From the IMG/VR virus record IMGVR_UViG_2534681703_000014, positions 1 to 45,442 of that record: a stretch of DNA of 45,442 nt. One strand, given 5' to 3'. The first letter of the stretch is position 1; each line of letters starts with the position of its first letter. This stretch comes from a virus (lineage: Duplodnaviria > Heunggongvirae > Uroviricota > Caudoviricetes). Positions 1 to 45,442 of the stretch are shown here, piece after piece. The notes beneath the pieces are model-generated. The model saw only the letters and a program-made list of their open reading frames with translations, was not told the origin of the DNA and ran no database searches. A program made the position numbers and the translations under genes.

Positions 1-123
1 CTTTCTCCAAAACCAGAACGGAATTGATTGATTTTGATAGGATCTATAACGCCGTTACATTAAACGGCAAAACCACTCAAAAACAAACTTAATGCATTGA
101 ATATAAAGGATTAATCATCTAAT
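1..123. repeat. Left copy of perfect 123-bp direct repeat (att-containing; may extend beyond window edge)
   Basis: Bases 1-123 are identical to 45320-45442 by direct comparison; lies immediately outside the integrase gene. Confidence 0.85.
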
Positions 124-184
124 TCGCTCACCTTCTTATTCATAAGGCGGGACACTTTCAGGATTTTGAATTTATTCAATTTTT

Positions 185-222
185 CCTTTCTCCAAAATCT
201 CTCCAAAACGTTTCCCCAAAAC
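185..222. repeat. Reiterated TCTCCAAAA(C/T) motifs next to int; candidate integrase arm-type binding sites
   Basis: Motif TCTCCAAAAC occurs at 4-13 (inside the repeat), 188-197, 199-208 and as TCCCCAAAAC at 213-222; arm-site role is inference. Confidence 0.35.
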
Positions 223-1703: not shown

Positions 1704-4175
1704 TTAAAAATCAGCCTGACTCGGGATCAGTTTTTGCCAGATAGCTGAAACGTATTTTGCCTGGTAACGAGCGTCATCAAGTGCATTATGGCGCTCACCT
1801 TCGAATGGGATAGCAGTTCTGGCATCGAAGTCTATGGCTTTCCCCAGCTCAACGATTGTGCGTACATCGCGATCGTTGTAGTAACGCCACGGGCAGGGGA
1901 TCCCCTGCCGCTCGTATGAACGGCGCAAAATAGTGTTGTCGAAGTTGGCTCCATTTCCCCAGACCTGAACAAAAAATTCACCGGAGTTTTCGTCGATAAA
2001 TTCCCGCAATTGTAACAGTGCATCATCTAACGGGATTTCATCGGTCATAATGGCAGATTGCGCTTCGCGTGATTGTTTAAGCCACCATTTAATGGTGTCC
2101 CGATCAATGACTCCGCCAGCAGTTTCCAGATCGATAGTCTTACTAAATTCCGGTCCCATATCTCCGGTTTGCGGATCGAAAAATATTGCACCTATTGAGA
2201 TAATCGGGGCATCGGGATTTTTTCCCATGGTTTCAAGGTCGATCATCAGATGAATCCCCGCTCTGCTGGTGGATGTGAGATTATGATGACCGTTCGCCTT
2301 AATTAAGGGATCTGACGCCTCGCCAGTTTCACTATCGCTGGCATGATGCTGATTGCCGCCAGTGTTCTCCTTGTGCTGATGCGCAGTGCCTTCCATTTCC
2401 TCCGGATCATTTTCCTGAACTTCAGGCTGATTCTCTCCATCGAATATTTCCTGGTATGTTGCGTCACCCATCACCGCACCACAATCAGGGCAGTTGCCGC
2501 CACCGCTCTGACCGCAGGCGGTGCAGATCTTTTCCGGTTCCTGTTGCACTACTGGTTCAGGTTGTTTCGTTTCTGGCTCGTTTTGTTGCGTATTTTGGCT
2601 GTTTTGTTCCGCTTTCTGGTCGTTCTGTTCCGTTTCTTGCTGGTTCTGGTTCGCAGAATCGCGGGTCTGGATCCCCTTAACCCATTTCGGATCATTCGGG
2701 TCGCTAATCCCTTCAACAAATTCACCACGTGATACTGCAAGCAGTTCATCGGCGTCAGGCTGGCTGATATTGGCTGCCTGCATAATTTTGTTTACTTCGT
2801 CAGCGGTAACTTTTACCGGTTCTGGCTGTGCGGTCGTGTCAGATGCACCAGTATTTTGTTGTGAACCTGAGTATGTACCGTTTTTGCGGGCGAAATATTC
2901 TTCTTTCGTGATTTCAGTAGCCCCTGCAGCCAGTGCCTTATCCAGACCAGAAAGTTTGTTTGCGCGACCGTATTTTTCGCCATCCTTGTCGGTGAAGAGG
3001 AAGTAGAACGGCCCCTCACGCTCTACAGATGGTTCGACTTCCACTTTGCATTCGGTTTTTTCGTTGTCCGGAATTGCCGTTTCCACTGCATCAGTTTCTG
3101 GTACTGGCGACGAGAGAGTATCAGTTGCGCTCTGATTTGTTCCTTCATCTTCAAACACGCCCTTTGTAGTCAGGTATTCAGTAATGTATTTGTTCAGTGC
3201 CACAGGATCTTTGTGAATGTCGATCGGACGTCCACGGACAAGGCCAAAAATAGTCTGGCGGTCGTAGCGAAGGGCATCAGGCTGTTTGCGCATCGATGCC
3301 GAGATACGCTTCCAGTCTTCGCGGTCGTTGTCGATAACTTCATTTTTTGCCCAGCGATGGATGCTGCCGTCAATGTTTCCGGCATCCACATCACCAGGCC
3401 AGAGAGCGTAGGCCAGTTCGTCATCCAGTGTTTTCCATGTCTGCTTGTATTCGCGATGAATGACTGCAGTGACAGGGGAGATATTTTCTGCTGAGTTTTC
3501 AGTGTGCTGTCGGTTGACTCTGGCGCGGGCGAGATCAACAGCAGACGTGTATTTTCCGGTTTCCTTGCGTTCACCTTCGCGACGTTTTTTCCAGATGCGC
3601 ATCTCTGCCTGAATTTCGGGCCATTTAGCTCCAGGCTTACATTTATGCTTAACCCACCCGATGGCATGCAACTTAAGTTCTGGATACATGGCGTTAACTT
3701 CTGGCATTTTCATCAACGCTTCAACGATATGTCCGTCGAATGTTGCCATGTCTTCCTGCAACAATTCCTGCGCGCTAATCACCATATCAACGGTGATGTT
3801 TTCACATGTGTCGAACTTAACCATGACAGCGTTCTGTACTTCAGGGGCCAGCTTGTCAAAAGTGACGTTCATCGGATCTGATTCAGTCTCAACCGGGACA
3901 AAGGAAGCAGACTCCTCATCCCAGCGGTTTTCCTGCATATATTCAGCATCCCAGGAATCGAGGGCAGGGCGGGGTATACCGGGTTTATCCTCGCAAACAA
4001 GAAATTTATAAGCGCAGTCCTGAGCAGCCGGATATTGCTCCAGGAATTGCCAGGTAAATTTGGCACGGGCGCGGCGTTCGTCACCGGCTTCAATGGCAGT
4101 GGCTACAGCAACTGCACCTTCTTCCTTTATTGCCTGTTCGTCCGGAATGGCAGCGCAAATAAAGACTTTACTCAT
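1704..4175 (-). CDS. Prophage exonuclease, 823 aa, with C-terminal DnaQ-like (DEDDh) 3'-5' exonuclease domain
   Basis: C-terminal motifs MIDLETMG ... HNALDDA fit the DnaQ/RNase T fold; central Q/N/E-rich low-complexity linker; position matches the exo slot of lambdoid early-left operons. Confidence 0.8.
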   Translation of the reverse strand: MSKVFICAAIPDEQAIKEEGAVAVATAIEAGDERRARAKFTWQFLEQYPAAQDCAYKFLVCEDKPGIPRPALDSWDAEYMQENRWDEESASFVPVETESDPMNVTFDKLAPEVQNAVMVKFDTCENITVDMVISAQELLQEDMATFDGHIVEALMKMPEVNAMYPELKLHAIGWVKHKCKPGAKWPEIQAEMRIWKKRREGERKETGKYTSAVDLARARVNRQHTENSAENISPVTAVIHREYKQTWKTLDDELAYALWPGDVDAGNIDGSIHRWAKNEVIDNDREDWKRISASMRKQPDALRYDRQTIFGLVRGRPIDIHKDPVALNKYITEYLTTKGVFEDEGTNQSATDTLSSPVPETDAVETAIPDNEKTECKVEVEPSVEREGPFYFLFTDKDGEKYGRANKLSGLDKALAAGATEITKEEYFARKNGTYSGSQQNTGASDTTAQPEPVKVTADEVNKIMQAANISQPDADELLAVSRGEFVEGISDPNDPKWVKGIQTRDSANQNQQETEQNDQKAEQNSQNTQQNEPETKQPEPVVQQEPEKICTACGQSGGGNCPDCGAVMGDATYQEIFDGENQPEVQENDPEEMEGTAHQHKENTGGNQHHASDSETGEASDPLIKANGHHNLTSTSRAGIHLMIDLETMGKNPDAPIISIGAIFFDPQTGDMGPEFSKTIDLETAGGVIDRDTIKWWLKQSREAQSAIMTDEIPLDDALLQLREFIDENSGEFFVQVWGNGANFDNTILRRSYERQGIPCPWRYYNDRDVRTIVELGKAIDFDARTAIPFEGERHNALDDARYQAKYVSAIWQKLIPSQADF

Positions 4176-5812: not shown

Positions 5813-6031
5813 TTAACGTGGGTATGTAATCATTCTGGCAATGCTTAATGCCGCTGCTTTTTCCAGCCTGGTGATATCCTGCTCCAGAGCGGACAGATTT
5901 TCAGCCTGCTTAGCCCTGGCTTCATTGGCCCATTTCAGATCCTGCGCTGCATTAATTTTCTGGCGCATCCACTCATAAAGTTCATCATCGGTATAGTCTT
6001 GTGCGATGATGACGGGTTCTCGTTTCTGCAT
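5813..6031 (-). CDS. Hypothetical early protein (72 aa), coiled-coil-like
   Basis: ORF in the early-left operon. Confidence 0.45.
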   Translation of the reverse strand: MQKREPVIIAQDYTDDELYEWMRQKINAAQDLKWANEARAKQAENLSALEQDITRLEKAAALSIARMITYPR

Positions 6032-6060
6032 ACTGATTCCTCGCGGTGCTGTTTCGCTTA

Positions 6061-6189
6061 TCAGCCGTTAGATTTTGCGGAACTGGAAAGCGCCTGTTTA
6101 AATTCGTTGAAGCTGAGAGCTTCTTCGCCTTCGGCAAGACCTTCGAAGTATTCTTCGTAAGCCTTTTCCATGATTGTGTCGAAATCCAT
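6061..6189 (-). CDS. Hypothetical small acidic protein (42 aa)
   Basis: Not in the ORF track (under 60 aa); ATG at 6189 lies 1 nt from the stop of the upstream gene (TGAGTGATATGG), suggesting coupling; translation MDFDTIMEKAYEEYFEGLAEGEEALSFNEFKQALSSSAKSNG. Confidence 0.3.
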   Translation of the reverse strand: MDFDTIMEKAYEEYFEGLAEGEEALSFNEFKQALSSSAKSNG

Positions 6190-6190
6190 A

Positions 6191-6427
6191 TCACTCACCT
6201 GAGTTTCTTTCCAGCCAGCGACGGGCACCATTTTCGGTTTTAAACGTTTTGCTTTTGGTATACGTCATCGCGGTGAACGTACCGTCCTGGTTGGGGAACA
6301 CGCCACATACCAGAGATTCGCTGTTGCCAAGATCGATAGTATCCATGCTGACCTCATTTCCCCTTAACGCCGGGGTAGCGGAACAAAAACCTGCTGCATA
6401 GTTATTAAAGTTGAACCCTGCCGTCAT
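6191..6427 (-). CDS. Hypothetical early protein (78 aa)
   Basis: First ORF downstream of the putative pL region at 6428-6637. Confidence 0.45.
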   Translation of the reverse strand: MTAGFNFNNYAAGFCSATPALRGNEVSMDTIDLGNSESLVCGVFPNQDGTFTAMTYTKSKTFKTENGARRWLERNSGE

Positions 6428-40284: not shown

Positions 40285-40295
40285 GTGGGGTGAAT

Positions 40296-42419
40296 ATGGC
40301 AGTAAAGATTTCAGGTGTGCTGAAAGACGGGGCGGGTAAGCCTGTCGTAAATTGTGCGATTGAACTGCGGGCCAGAAGAACCAGTCCGACCGTTGTGGCA
40401 CACGTTGTCGCCACTTGTGTGACGGACAATAACGGTGCTTATGTGATTGAGGCTGAGCCGGGGTATTACGAGGTTGCGCTTAACCGTAACGGCTGGCAGC
40501 CAACCCGTGTCGGGGATATTTATGTGGCACCGACTGACACACCTGGGACACTGAACGCGTTTCTGGATGCACCAAAGGATGGTGATTTACGTCCGGAGGT
40601 GATGAAGCGTTTTGAGGAAATGGTGGATGCAGTTACCCGGCAGTCAGAGCAGGTCACTGATGACCGTAAAAGAGCAGAGTCGGCAGCGGATACAGCAACA
40701 AACGCAGCGACCTCTGCTCTTGACAGTAAAAATAAGGCAGAAGAGCTGAAAAATCAGGCACAGCAGAGCGCCGAAGCGGCTGCAAAAAGCGAGCAGAACG
40801 CAAAAAGTCACGCTGATAATGCAGCCGGAAGCGCACAACAGACTGCACAGGATGTGACAGCAACCGAAACGGCCCGTGATGACGCAGAGCGTTTTGCGAA
40901 TGAGGCAGAAAACAGTGCTCAGGCATCAGGGGCAGCGCGGAATGAATCGGTTGATGCAGCCGGACGCGCCAGTCAGTATAAGGAAGCAGCATCTTTGGCT
41001 GCGACCAGTGCAGAAAATGCGGCAAATGTTGCGCTGGGCCATGAAAATAACGCTGCCGAATACGCCCGGCAGGCGAAGGCCAGCCAGGATGCGAGCGCAG
41101 GCAATGCGCAGGAAGCGAAACAGCAGAGGGACGAGGCGCAACGGATTGTTGATGACCTGAAGGGAAGCAATGCTTCCACAACAGAAAAAGGCCTGGTGCA
41201 ACTCTGTAGTGATACAGACAACGACAGCGAGGAACTGGCAGCCACACCAAAAGCCGTCAAAACCGTCATGGACGAGACGAAAACAAAAGCGCCGCTGGAC
41301 AGCCCGGCATTCACCGGCACACCCACCACACCAACCCCACCGGACGATGCTGCCGGTCTGGAAACAGCGAACGCGGCATTTGTTCGCAAACTGCTTGCTG
41401 CGCTGGTTGACTCGTCACCGGAAGCCCTGGACACGCTGAACGAGCTGGCAGCAGCGCTGGGCAATGACCCGAACTTTGCGACAACGGTTACTAAAGCACT
41501 GGCAGGTAAACAGCCGCTTAACAATACGTTAACCAATATCAGCAAGGTAGGGGTGGGACAAAACTCTCTCCTTTATTTTGGTGATAACTTTGAGGCAAAA
41601 GCAATTCCATGCAGCAACAAGGCTCGCTTATTACTGTCACGAAACACGCCTGGAGACATGCGCACGGAGCTTGGACTGAAAGCTGCTGCTACGATGGAAC
41701 CCCAGAGCTATATCCGCGACCGCGCACCGGGCAGGCTGGCACTGTCCGGTATGCATGGGTTCGGTCAGGCATTTGCCAGCACCGAAGCCCTGACATTTAA
41801 CGGGCAGGCCGATTTTGTTGAATGGCTGAAAGTGGCCACGCCGGGGCGTTATGCGGTCAGTCTTGCGGATTCTTCCATGCTGCTGGTAGGCACCAAGAAA
41901 TTTAACGGCATCATTGATGTGATGTGGTCGCCCTTTGATAACGATGAGTCGGACACAATACGCAAATTCAAAACACTGCTGTGTTTTAACCAGTATTACG
42001 AAGGTGAGCATAGTATTCATTTCCTGACTTACCGCTTTAGTGGAAACAACTGGAATGCAACAGTAAGCCCCATTATTTACGACGGCGATTCGCTGGCCTT
42101 CCTGCTGTCCAGGACGGCGGGCTCAGGCTCATATTTCAAATACCCGGCAGTGGGTGTTCCAGTGCTGGCTGTTTATCGCGGAACAACTTTCGGGGATAAA
42201 GAAATCAATATTGGCCTGGGTGATGTGGTGCAGGGGTCACAACTGGGCGGAGTTAATCTTTCGTGCTTAATATCTTCTCCTGGGGTTGGCTCCTACAATT
42301 CCGCACCGAGTGCAGGAGCTACAGGGTACACTTTCCCGGGGCGTTATATGGCGCTATCCGGGGTCAGGGACTCTAAAGGAATAACCGGTCGTATCTGCCT
42401 GTTTGTGCGCATCGAGTAA
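40296..42419 (+). CDS. stf: Side tail fiber protein (Stf-like)
   Basis: N-terminus MAVKISGVLKDGAGKPV... and internal ...LAATPKAVKTVMDETKTKAPLDSPAFTGTPT... match lambda Stf as I recall it; Ala/Ser-rich repeats. Confidence 0.85.
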   Translation: MAVKISGVLKDGAGKPVVNCAIELRARRTSPTVVAHVVATCVTDNNGAYVIEAEPGYYEVALNRNGWQPTRVGDIYVAPTDTPGTLNAFLDAPKDGDLRPEVMKRFEEMVDAVTRQSEQVTDDRKRAESAADTATNAATSALDSKNKAEELKNQAQQSAEAAAKSEQNAKSHADNAAGSAQQTAQDVTATETARDDAERFANEAENSAQASGAARNESVDAAGRASQYKEAASLAATSAENAANVALGHENNAAEYARQAKASQDASAGNAQEAKQQRDEAQRIVDDLKGSNASTTEKGLVQLCSDTDNDSEELAATPKAVKTVMDETKTKAPLDSPAFTGTPTTPTPPDDAAGLETANAAFVRKLLAALVDSSPEALDTLNELAAALGNDPNFATTVTKALAGKQPLNNTLTNISKVGVGQNSLLYFGDNFEAKAIPCSNKARLLLSRNTPGDMRTELGLKAAATMEPQSYIRDRAPGRLALSGMHGFGQAFASTEALTFNGQADFVEWLKVATPGRYAVSLADSSMLLVGTKKFNGIIDVMWSPFDNDESDTIRKFKTLLCFNQYYEGEHSIHFLTYRFSGNNWNATVSPIIYDGDSLAFLLSRTAGSGSYFKYPAVGVPVLAVYRGTTFGDKEINIGLGDVVQGSQLGGVNLSCLISSPGVGSYNSAPSAGATGYTFPGRYMALSGVRDSKGITGRICLFVRIE

Positions 42420-42432
42420 CGGGGAATAAAAC

Positions 42433-43008
42433 ATGAAAATCAGAGCGGTAAAGGGCATCAGAAACGCCCATTATCTTGAAAATGGTGCGGTTGACTGCGA
42501 GGTGTTATTTGAAGGTGAAACGGAATTCGTCCCGTATACCGCCATGCAGGATGATACCGCACCGACAGGCCAGCGCATCTGGGAAGAGTTGCAGAACGGC
42601 AAATGGGGCGAAATCGCCCCTTTCACTGTCACGCCGGAACTTATCGCCGCGGCGAAGGATGCCAAAAAGCAGGAAATCGAGGCATGGCGCACAGAACAGG
42701 AAGCACTGCCGTTCACCTTTGAATGGAACGGTCGCACCTGGAACGCTGGCCCCGACTCAATGGCCCGTCTTTATCCGGTAGTAATGGCGGCGAAATCTGA
42801 TACGGCACTAACCGCCCTTGCATGGGGTGATGCCGATAATCAACAGGTGAAACTGTCAATGCCGGAACTGGAAGAACTGGCGACAGCAATGGCGCAGGCA
42901 CAGGTCGATCGCAATAACGAGATTTATCAGCGTCAGCGGGAGATGAAGGAAGAACTGAATAATCTTGATGATTTACGCTCAATCCGAGCGTTTGACGTTA
43001 CGCAATAA
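42433..43008 (+). CDS. Putative tail fiber assembly/chaperone protein (atypical, not canonical Tfa)
   Basis: 191-aa ORF immediately after stf; lacks the conserved Tfa C-terminal motif that appears in two fragments farther right. Confidence 0.45.
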   Translation: MKIRAVKGIRNAHYLENGAVDCEVLFEGETEFVPYTAMQDDTAPTGQRIWEELQNGKWGEIAPFTVTPELIAAAKDAKKQEIEAWRTEQEALPFTFEWNGRTWNAGPDSMARLYPVVMAAKSDTALTALAWGDADNQQVKLSMPELEELATAMAQAQVDRNNEIYQRQREMKEELNNLDDLRSIRAFDVTQ

Positions 43009-43228
43009 AAAAACATTGATATGCCAGCCCCTTGTAAAAATATTGAACATGGACGCTTTGAGTTGAATTGGATTTACATGGGGCACCTTGGGGCATATAT
43101 GGGACATAAAAAGGCCTCAGACAAACAGCAAAATCGAGTTCAGGAGTTTTTAGAAAAAATACAACCATCTTAAAAAAACTTAGAAAACGCCCAGAAATCC
43201 ACAGGATGGTAAAAAATATCTATGAATC

Positions 43229-43417
43229 ATGGGTTTCCAGTTATATTCGCTCGGCGCAGCGTTAGTGTTTCATGAAATATTTTTTCCTGAATCATCAACG
43301 GCAATGGCGTTAATTCTGGCAATGGGAACCTACGGTGCAGGTTATGTGGCACGTATTGTCGGAGCATTTATTTTCGGAAAAATGGGCGACAGACGCCGCA
43401 GGACGTACTCGGAGTAG
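43229..43417 (+). pseudogene. Fragment resembling the N-terminal region of an MFS (metabolite:H+ symporter family) transporter
   Basis: LGAALVFHEIFFPESSTAMALILAMGTYGAGYVARIVGAFIFGKMGDRRRR parallels ShiA/ProP-type N-terminal TM1-TM2 region by recollection; ORF truncated at both ends. Confidence 0.35.
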
Positions 43418-43763
43418 TAACGCGTATGGTCATTGCGCCGCGAGTGCCAATAACTTCCACCACAGCACCTGCAAGACAAATATTTCCGCAACCTGTATCT
43501 GTAATAACCTTATTATTTGCATAAGCCCATGAGCCTTTGCACATCCAGTAAGGATGGTTAAATGCCCCCTGACTCTCCAGCCACGAAATAAATTGCGCGG
43601 TTGTCCAGATCTGACTATCGCCACCAATATTCAGCCATGCTCTATATGCGCGGCAGGCACCAATATTTTTGGTGAAGGTATCTTTTACCGGAATATCTGC
43701 ACCGTTCTGGTTTTTCTGTAATGCGCCAGAAGCCTGATTTACCGTTTCCTGTAAACCGAGGTT
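43368..43763 (-). pseudogene. Inverted-orientation C-terminal fragment of a tail fiber gene (stf'-like remnant)
   Basis: Minus-strand frame lacking a start codon (...CRAYRAWLNIGGDSQIWTTAQFISWLESQGAFNHPYWMCKGSWAYANNKVITDTGCGNICLAG...); call rests on its position and orientation beside the pin remnant, not on a recognised motif. Confidence 0.35.
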
Positions 43764-43825
43764 TTAGATAATGGCCGTATCCGGCCTGCATGGCATGATT
43801 TGCGCTTTTGGACGGGAGATTCAGT

Positions 43826-44059
43826 GTGCTGATTGGTTATGTAAGGGTATCAACAAATGACCAGAATACAGACCTGCAACGAAACGCTCTTGTTTGTGCA
43901 GGATGTGAACAAATATTTGAAGATAAATAAAGCGGAACAAGGACAGGCCGACCTGGATTAAAACGTGCTTTAAAGCGCCTTCAAAAAGGTGACGCACTGG
44001 TTGTCTGGAAACTGGACTGACTGGGTCACTGTATGCGGCATCTTGTCGTGCTGGTGGTG
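43826..44059 (+). pseudogene. Serine recombinase DNA invertase (Pin/Gin/Hin family) remnant with two in-frame stops, truncated
   Basis: VLIGYVRVSTNDQNTDLQRNALVCAGCEQIFEDK-stop-SGTRTGRPGLKRALKRLQKGDALVVWKLD-stop-LG..MRHL; in-frame TAA 43928-43930 and TGA 44018-44020; catalytic-Ser N-terminus recognisable. Confidence 0.7.
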
Positions 44060-44152
44060 GAAGCCTGGAAAAAGTATCGGGTGTTGCTGAATCGTGTTGA
44101 TACATCAACTGCACCTGATATTGAGTGGCCTACGAACCCTGTCATGGAGTAA
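44060..44152 (+). pseudogene. Tail fiber assembly protein (Tfa) C-terminal fragment fused in frame to the pin remnant
   Basis: [30 protein letters not shown] matches the conserved Tfa C-terminus as I recall it. Confidence 0.65.
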
Positions 44153-44206: not shown

Positions 44207-44875
44207 CTATTTTTTCCCTGAAGCGGAAAACATTACTACAGTACCTTGAACCTTGGTTTTAACATTCTCGAAATGCTCTGAGAGTATATGCGTTAAGCCT
44301 TCTTCGGAATCTTTTGTGTTTGAAAAGATGCCTTTCTGATTGTAAATGCGCATCAGTTTTTGACCGAAGCTATTGTGCACAACTCCATCGCCAAGAATTG
44401 TGGCTCCGTATAGAGTTCCATCGTCAGTTAAGGCCTGCGCCGCATTGCGTATTACACAGCTTTTTGTAGATATATTTCCAGGCAGGCAGTGAAGAAGGTA
44501 AAACATGGAAATGGAATCAAATTGACCATGTAACGCCGCGGGATAAGGTTCAAAAACATCATGGCTAATTTTATGTTTAATTTTTGATTCCCCAGCCCTT
44601 GTAGATGCCGCGTTCAGGCTAGCTTCGTTCAAATCCATTAAAGATATCAGACTACTCTCAGGTACGTGAGTAAGGTAAAACCCAGTTCCAACACCAATAT
44701 CCAGATGGTTGTTACCTAAATGTTCCAGAAAGTGTGGAAGAAGGTATTCCTTTGTAGGACATCCCCATGCAAGCCGATTTGATACTCCCAAAACCCACCA
44801 GTCATAAAGCTTTAGGGTAAGTGGTGTGTAAATTTTAGCCCCATCATCTGTGTTTTTTTTCATTAATTTCACCAT
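44207..44875 (-). CDS. Class I SAM-dependent methyltransferase (222 aa), AT-rich cargo gene
   Basis: Motif I DIGVGTGFY (Gly-rich SAM-binding loop); low GC relative to flanking phage DNA. Confidence 0.7.
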   Translation of the reverse strand: MVKLMKKNTDDGAKIYTPLTLKLYDWWVLGVSNRLAWGCPTKEYLLPHFLEHLGNNHLDIGVGTGFYLTHVPESSLISLMDLNEASLNAASTRAGESKIKHKISHDVFEPYPAALHGQFDSISMFYLLHCLPGNISTKSCVIRNAAQALTDDGTLYGATILGDGVVHNSFGQKLMRIYNQKGIFSNTKDSEEGLTHILSEHFENVKTKVQGTVVMFSASGKK

Positions 44876-45045: not shown

Positions 45046-45198
45046 ATTGCGCCACTGCAGGATGCTGTAGATCTGGAAATCGCAAAGGAGGAAGAAAGAT
45101 CGTTGCTGGAGGCATGGAATAAATATCGGGTATTGTTGAATCGTGTTGATACATCAACTGCACCTGATATTGAGTGGCCGACTTCACCTGCAGAGTAA
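45046..45198 (+). pseudogene. Second Tfa C-terminal fragment
   Basis: [50 protein letters not shown]; no N-terminal part (in-frame stop at 44965-44967). Confidence 0.6.
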
Positions 45199-45319: not shown

Positions 45320-45442
45320 CTTTCTCCAAAACCAGAACGGAATTGATTGATTTTGATAGGATCTATAACGCCGTTACATTAAACGGCAAAACCACTCAAA
45401 AACAAACTTAATGCATTGAATATAAAGGATTAATCATCTAAT
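45320..45442. repeat. Right copy of perfect 123-bp direct repeat (att-containing)
   Basis: Identical to 1-123. Confidence 0.85.

Follow-up and report, generated by a model that had tools for sequence, protein, structure and literature searches.

The window analysed here comprises 45,442 nucleotides of phage DNA (IMG/VR record IMGVR_UViG_2534681703_000014), and its program-made list of open reading frames includes an integrase and tail genes. Near the right end, the same list holds a short plus-strand ORF (43229..43417) with a product of 62 amino acids, MGFQLYSLGAALVFHEIFFPESSTAMALILAMGTYGAGYVARIVGAFIFGKMGDRRRRTYSE, present exactly as an earlier note on this DNA had described it. Residues 1–55 of this product correspond to residues 29–83 of YdfJ, with 54 of the 55 positions identical and D30G as the sole change, when compared to the E. 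coli K-12 protein reconstructed from the ynfP N-terminus and b1543. By BLASTP, 55 of 58 residues are identical to YdfJ residues 29–86 (E=3e-35). The earlier note had recognized in this ORF a ShiA/ProP-like symporter pattern, and this is correct: the NCBIfam metabolite/H+ symporter model TIGR00883 matches with E=8.4e-19 (residues 2–58 on profile positions 8–64 of 400), and weaker matches are found to the ShiA (5e-12) and ProP (2.7e-6) models. More exactly, the parent is ydfJ itself.

Of the 455 codons of ydfJ only 55 are kept; 28 are missing at the N-terminus and 372 at the C-terminus, as expected from the claim that the gene is truncated on both sides. MFS motif A (G-x-x-x-D-R-x-G-R-K/R), which lies between TM2 and TM3, is cut after GDR, such that YdfJ reads GDRIGRKK whereas the ORF reads GDRRRRTYSE followed by a stop. 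The TIGR00883 score is 67.9 bits compared to a cut-off of 443, which places the product outside the full-length members of that family, and a Pfam search with the 62-residue product gave zero matches, the piece being too short. We read positions 43229–43393 as a fragment of the E. coli gene ydfJ, which encodes an MFS transporter of the MHS family, and not as a gene for a member protein.

The earlier note had proposed a nucleotide comparison of 43150–43450 as a means of finding the parental gene and its breakpoints. Megablast of this segment finds ydfJ in 5,220 of 5,426 complete E. coli genomes, and both edges could be placed. Moreover, window positions 43088–43393 match the junction between the Qin prophage and ydfJ in K-12-like E. 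coli (positions 5939–6243 of locus L001) at 97% identity over 306 nucleotides. There is practically no prospect that the similarity is a chance resemblance in a hydrophobic frame, or that the arrangement is a chimeric assembly. Nothing but the shortness of the ORF and the absent Pfam match speaks for such an explanation, and it is refuted by the DNA identity, by the TIGR00883 match (E=8e-19) and by the recurrence of the same joint in independent isolate, IMG/VR and metagenome assemblies.

Table 1. Features of the ydfJ fragment, its surroundings and the ends of the window.
Feature	Position	Strand	Basis and remarks
attP core, 14 bp, CACCTTCTTATTCA	129..142		targets potB 3' end/potC start; four-way attP/attL/attR/attB alignment
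Tail-fibre-assembly-like gene (tfa, DUF4376, 191 aa)	42433..43008	+	ORF; Pfam DUF4376 in homologous loci; leftmost part of collinear block
79-bp spacer	43009..43087		common to A8/PSJ-22-type ydfJ-prophage ends, absent from K-12 Qin
DinI-like gene stub (N-terminal fragment)	43085..43168	-	coordinates transferred by alignment; typical of right ends of ydfJ-resident prophages
Phage arm of Qin-type attR	43088..43226	+	within the 306-nt stretch 97% identical to Qin side/junction
Qin-type att core relic	43227..43237	+	alignment; TCATGGGTTTC here, TTATGGATTTC in K-12 attL/attR
ydfJ fragment, codons 29–83 of 455	43229..43393	+	N-terminal part of MFS fold, ends inside motif A (GDR/IGRKK)
Novel ydfJ/Sv' joint	43393..43394		blunt, no microhomology; three-way alignments with ydfJ (L001), potB prophage (L002) and Mu (L017)
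Seven out-of-frame codons (RRRTYSE) and stop	43394..43417	+	non-YdfJ; antisense strand of Sv' fragment; closes the fused ORF
Mu G-segment-type alternative tail-fibre C-terminal fragment (Sv'), 365 nt	43394..43758	-	94.7–96% identical to Mu/D108/P88; 97.7% to potB prophages
gix/pix-like invertase crossover site	43746..43771	+	1 mismatch, 0 expected by chance; coincides with Mu G-segment boundary
gin/pin invertase pseudogene	43826..44016	+	first 191 nt of 582; stop at codon 35 (43928–43930); Mu gin coordinates mapped
123-bp terminal overlap	45320..45442		identical to window 1–123

The similarity to K-12-like genomes begins at 43088, upstream of the ATG of the ORF. The gene ydfJ and the Qin junction within it are textbook features of K-12. 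In K-12 and in strain BS-01, the counterpart of 43088–43393 is the right end of Qin, consisting of a minus-strand DinI-like stub and a non-coding arm, followed by ydfJ without its N-terminus; the same arrangement of arm and ydfJ is present in about 1,900 complete E. coli genomes. The stretch homologous to the stub carries the PGAP label 'DinI family protein, incomplete' in L001 (5936–6019) and in L005.

We defined an 11-bp att core, TTATGGATTTC, as the longest repeat common to attL and attR of K-12 Qin. Beyond this core, attL of K-12 continues into phage DNA (AAGAGTCATGCG...) unrelated to ydfJ, and attR continues into ydfJ. The corresponding core in the window is followed by 156 nucleotides of ydfJ-type sequence, which must be of host type because the true phage arm, as seen in K-12 attL, is unlike ydfJ. 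The window thus has a phage arm, a core and a ydfJ-type arm, as expected for attR and not for an arm of attP. The same unrelated attL arm rules out another origin of the ydfJ homology, namely the attP of a ydfJ-specific phage, where it would serve as a gene-reconstituting arm. The phage arm, the core and the ydfJ arm all align collinearly with the attR sequences of K-12, BS-01, A8 and PSJ-22. The left boundary of the ydfJ piece is therefore a site-specific phage/host junction of the Qin type (attR) and not a random break.

The core itself, TCATGGGTTTC, differs at two of its eleven positions from every E. coli attR and attL examined. A donor in which this variant is followed by an uninterrupted ydfJ was searched for and none was found; the variant is seen solely with the relic. 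The changed core fits decay after capture.

The similarity to prophages resident in ydfJ extends well to the left of the arm shared with K-12. Window positions 42462–43393 align in one piece with the ends of such prophages in strains A8 (90.5% identity) and PSJ-22 (88.4%), both of which present the same order: an stf or terminase remnant, the DUF4376 gene, the DinI-like stub where annotated, and ydfJ lacking its N-terminus. The captured unit is the end of a prophage together with the adjacent 165 nucleotides of host ydfJ, and not a bare piece of chromosome. The earlier note had explained the fragment as host DNA captured by illegitimate recombination. This holds for the host origin and for the right edge at 43393/43394, but the left edge is the product of an integrase, being an attR junction.

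At the right edge, identity to ydfJ ends at 43393 (...GGCGACAGA), and from 43394 (CGCCGCAGGACG...) the sequence is homologous to the Sv' segment of Mu and of prophages in potB. Similarity to Mu, D108 and P88 begins at 43394 or 43396. The three-way alignments leave zero shared bases and zero filler at the joint, and this edge is thus an illegitimate join made without homology. The ORF and a fibre-like fragment on the opposite strand had been said to overlap by 50 nucleotides, and this is so for the mechanically called ORFs (43229..43417 on the plus strand, 43368..43544 on the minus strand); the homology blocks, however, do not overlap but abut at the joint. That the right end is a mosaic, as the earlier note had proposed, is borne out. 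A terminator-like hairpin with a T-run (43386–43399, minus strand) spans the joint and is at chance level, with one found and 1.1 expected in the region.

Rightward of the joint, the DNA resembles the invertible tail-fibre segments of Mu (G), P1 (C) and e14 (P), which are switched by Gin, Cin and Pin, respectively. In Mu coordinates, the window retains 365 nucleotides of Sv', the boundary of the G segment and the first 191 nucleotides of gin, and across these parts it is 95–96% identical to Mu and D108. In contrast to those systems, there is one crossover site and the invertase is truncated. No second gix/pix site was found in the 45-kb window with up to three mismatches allowed. With a single site and a truncated invertase that has an early stop, the Gin/Pin-type tail-fibre switch of the window is dead. 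Neither an invertase nor an insertion sequence made the joint, since the joint lies 352 nucleotides away from the single gix site and is free of IS sequence.

Further to the right, a gene for a class I SAM-dependent methyltransferase of 222 amino acids (44207–44875, minus strand) lies between two C-terminal fragments of tfa (44033–44152 and 45103–45198) that are about 88–91% identical to each other. Together, the tfa fragments and the methyltransferase cargo gene between them look like layered leftovers of earlier replacements of tail-fibre modules.

The carrier of this mosaic is a phage that integrates between potB and potC. The first 123 bases of the window are identical to its last 123 bases, and the window is therefore a circular permutation of a lambda-like phage genome of 45,319 bp or, equivalently, as a tandem junction. 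In the closest lysogen (L016), identity runs 19 bases past the right end of the window and through CACCTTCTTATTCA, after which L016 continues into potB and the window into int. Window positions 60–200 correspond to attP, with a left arm equal to the phage arm of attR in L016 and a right arm equal to the phage arm of attL in L019; the 14-bp core is common to this attP and to the potB 3' end/potC start of K-12. In lysogens, the identical integrase protein adjoins potC-potD-ymfA-ycfZ-cobB, and the right end of the phage adjoins potB-potA-pepT-roxA-phoQP. The ydfJ relic is located approximately 2 kb from attP on the tail-fibre side, a position that corresponds to the non-essential b region of lambda.

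These features exclude two other ways to read the window. It is not a prophage between 123-bp att repeats, since the repeat is a terminal overlap and the real core lies elsewhere. Nor is the true end of the prophage at ydfJ, with the remainder a second remnant, since attP is intact and in lysogens the left flank is potC-potD and the right flank potB-potA. The description of the fragment as stranded inside a prophage needs to be amended to this extent: the scrap is truly phage-borne, its carrier being the genome of a phage, circularly permuted and equipped with an intact attP of the potB type. The integrase of the window has no detectable similarity to the K-12 Qin region, the intQ pseudogene included, and an action of the phage's own integrase on the relic attR was rejected for this reason. 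Adjoining int is a gene for an 823-residue exonuclease (1704–4175, minus strand) with the Pfam domains YdfE_N and YdfE_C, and K-12 Qin carries a pseudogene named ydfE. We take the exonuclease to be a candidate RecE-like enzyme, of a kind presumably linked to illegitimate recombination.

The exact 62-residue protein is encoded on 56 contigs, all from E. coli, and the annotations there read 'inner membrane metabolite transport YdfJ domain protein' or 'transporter'. Dozens of E. coli assemblies that differ in host background carry the joint, always at potB; one such carrier lysogen is GCA_000356665. The 24 contigs examined from NCBI, ENA and Logan have an identical junction. An IMG/VR contig with the joint is 99.7% identical over 6.5 kb; for a contig from a metagenome, the match is 99.8% over 2.5 kb. 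The context is the same in ten loci taken from separate assemblies: lambdoid tail genes are followed by DUF4376, the 62-residue ORF, a resolvase fragment, the methyltransferase and potB. Across these loci, 43009–43800 has 0–1 mismatches to the window, whereas their chromosomal flanks show up to 1.5% divergence among themselves. We conclude that the joint arose once and travelled with the phage.

The distribution of the joint is uneven among sequence collections. None of the 5,426 complete E. coli genomes has it, and a scan for the exact junction in one genome per species gave 0 matches; carriers were found only in draft assemblies, in IMG/VR and in one metagenome. The tail-fibre gene stf differs among carriers of the identical joint, with variants of 662, 707 and 709 amino acids (40290–42419 in the window; about 7068/7203–9191 in L007–L016), and one locus (L015) is without the distal tail genes altogether. 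The stf of the window is only 80–89% identical to the best match among the complete E. coli genomes.

Other truncated N-terminal YdfJ proteins in the same cluster stem from unrelated events, namely an IS1 insertion at codon 88 and truncations at contig ends. The IS1 insertion (L024, 6001–8144) is in a lineage without a prophage at codon 28. Many of the calls annotated as partial (among P0002–P0015) end around codons 66–106. Some of these may be contig breaks caused within ydfJ by the 306-bp segment, which is duplicated in genomes that carry the phage.

Two potB phages have simpler right arms. One (L002) carries a full Sv-U-U'-Sv'-gin' cassette at this position, and in the other (L023) about 110 bp separate tfa from the att arm; the ydfJ block is thus an addition or a replacement. 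Relative to the L002 type, approximately positions 40331–43395 of the window replace stf through most of Sv', with the shared sequence stopping at 40330, at the conserved 5' end of stf. The donor of the block must have been a prophage resident in ydfJ and not a free phage, because a phage/host attR exists only in the chromosome of a lysogen.

We consider it very probable that the fragment is the scar of a lambda-bio-like capture, in which the right end of a ydfJ prophage and 165 nucleotides of host ydfJ, by now non-functional, were transferred to a phage of the potB/potC type. In such an event, a potB-type phage and a resident ydfJ prophage would first undergo homologous recombination somewhere in the lom, stf 5' and tfa region. 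A single illegitimate crossover between nucleotide 165 of the captured ydfJ stretch and the phage's own Sv' would then release a packageable, genome-sized circle. Its predicted order, Sv'(part)-gix-gin'-...-attP(potB)-int-...-J-lom-stf-tfa-attR(ydfJ)-ydfJ', is exactly the one found in the window. The phage would have retained its own int and attP and subsequently spread. The block now lies in a dispensable part of a carrier with an unrelated integrase, bounded by the tail-fibre genes on one side and attP on the other. No donor prophage more than 97% identical was present among the genomes searched. The left, homologous crossover could not be placed; stf has been re-exchanged among carriers and, as described above, is only distantly matched in complete genomes.

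The same origin could also be reached with no excision intermediate, if a single chromosome housed one prophage at potB and another at ydfJ, some 450 kb away, and the two swapped a patch by a double event. One of its crossovers would be homologous, in the tail or tail-fibre genes, and the other illegitimate, between ydfJ and Sv'. DUF4376-type tfa modules are found at the ends of both potB and ydfJ prophages, and work on STEC has documented that prophages in ydfJ recombine with other prophages, with inversions of the chromosome among the outcomes, and has proposed intrachromosomal recombination between prophages as the entry route of chromosomal att sequences (PMC8112680). However, in K-12 the minus strand carries both potB and ydfJ, and the relic ydfJ of the carrier is opposite to potB, so that the two prophages would be mutually inverted. 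Any single crossover between them would turn around about 450 kb of chromosome, and to leave no more than a clean patch, two events would have to be coordinated, one of which would be non-homologous. On balance we regard this exchange within the chromosome as possible, though distinctly the less likely course. Both proposals for the route are read from the sequence, and on that basis alone aberrant excision and an in-chromosome patch exchange would be inseparable.

Capture of host DNA that flanks an att site is classical specialised transduction, and lambda-bio and lambda-gal arise by aberrant excision. The capture that we favour would resemble these phages in several respects. Host DNA is contiguous with a hybrid att junction and directly flanks the prophage, no homology was involved in forming the novel joint, and the product would be of packageable size. 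It differs from them in that the captured host piece is only 165 nucleotides, and in that the carrier keeps another, intact int and attP, such that its formation would call for an intermediate, hybrid or tandem, in which a second phage takes part. The event is also a fossil, known from sequence.

Compared to Qin of K-12 (1632277–1652745; ydfJ is b1543/ynfP), the window shares the gene, the point of interruption between codons 28 and 29, the core region and the phage arm, with the identity over 306 nucleotides given above. In K-12, however, the junction is chromosomal and ydfJ continues for 427 codons, whereas the relic has 55 codons and lies within a phage that integrates at potB.

A closer parallel is found in short chromosome-derived att segments (yecE, ykgJ/ecpE and ompW) that are present in E. 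coli lambdoid prophages and have been termed attB-in-prophage (Nakamura et al. 2021, PMC8112680). That study left the mode of their capture open, and it describes ydfJ-resident prophages that take part in recombination and inversions. The segments are 81–87% identical to the chromosome, resemble attB and are occupied by other phages (PMC8112680). The ydfJ relic, in contrast, is 97% identical and has the structure of attR, with a phage arm and a host arm, and no occupant was observed in the ten loci. It is a further, well-preserved example of a chromosome-derived att sequence in a lambdoid phage, and one whose origin is made readable by the attached attR.

With 55 of 455 codons, a break within motif A and no convincing promoter, the ydfJ scrap cannot act as a transporter. 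No promoter-like site near or upstream of the 62-residue ORF rises above the expectation from shuffled sequence, which suggests that the ORF is not expressed. The DNA around it consists of fragments, namely the DinI-like stub, Sv', gin' and the C-terminal ends of two tfa genes. It is very unlikely that the ORF is a 'moron', expressed as a small membrane protein and retained because that protein has its own function. The ORF has an ATG and two hydrophobic stretches, and it is intact and identical on 56 contigs, but this conservation is explained by recent spread, given that 0–1 mismatches are found across all of the 800-bp region, whether coding or not. Moreover, no Shine-Dalgarno-like sequence is visible 5' of the ATG, where promoter signals are likewise at chance level, the ORF ends with seven codons derived from the junction, and its neighbours are pseudogene fragments.

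The att sequence might be considered separately from the gene fragment, since the relic is a chromosome-derived segment with an att core inside a phage. Such sequences occupied by other phages have been described, and ydfJ is a frequent att site of lambdoid phages (PMC8112680). The core region is also still flanked by a phage arm and a host arm. However, it seems quite improbable that ydfJ-specific phages can use the relic attR as a functional secondary attachment site, or that it gives the phage a point of entry to the ydfJ locus by homology. The core departs from all examined E. coli attR and attL sequences at two of its eleven positions, only tail genes and tfa are found upstream in the ten loci (10 kb of flank are visible per locus), and the integrase of the phage itself is unlike anything in the K-12 Qin region, intQ included.

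More speculatively, and with a small likelihood, the relic with its approximately 300 bp of Qin/ydfJ identity may be a landing pad for a prophage within a prophage or a portable patch of homology, and would then represent the first readable capture route of an attB-in-prophage. If true, the homology patch could promote inversions of roughly 450 kb or further swaps of tail-fibre modules via the ydfJ locus.

By itself the ydfJ relic is of little weight, as it is the dead scrap of a gene; its value is that of a dated and readable scar. For annotation, the 62-residue entries named 'transporter' or 'YdfJ domain protein' would be better treated as a pseudogene fragment. Since an attR is found inside a free-standing phage that has another int and attP, at least the tfa-to-attR end must have come by way of a prophage resident in ydfJ, and not from a cross of two free phages. 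This would provide a concrete route by which chromosome-derived att sequences enter lambdoid phages, the step that was left open in the study of attB-in-prophage sequences (PMC8112680). It also flags the region between the tail-fibre genes and attP as a place where the debris of recombination accumulates.
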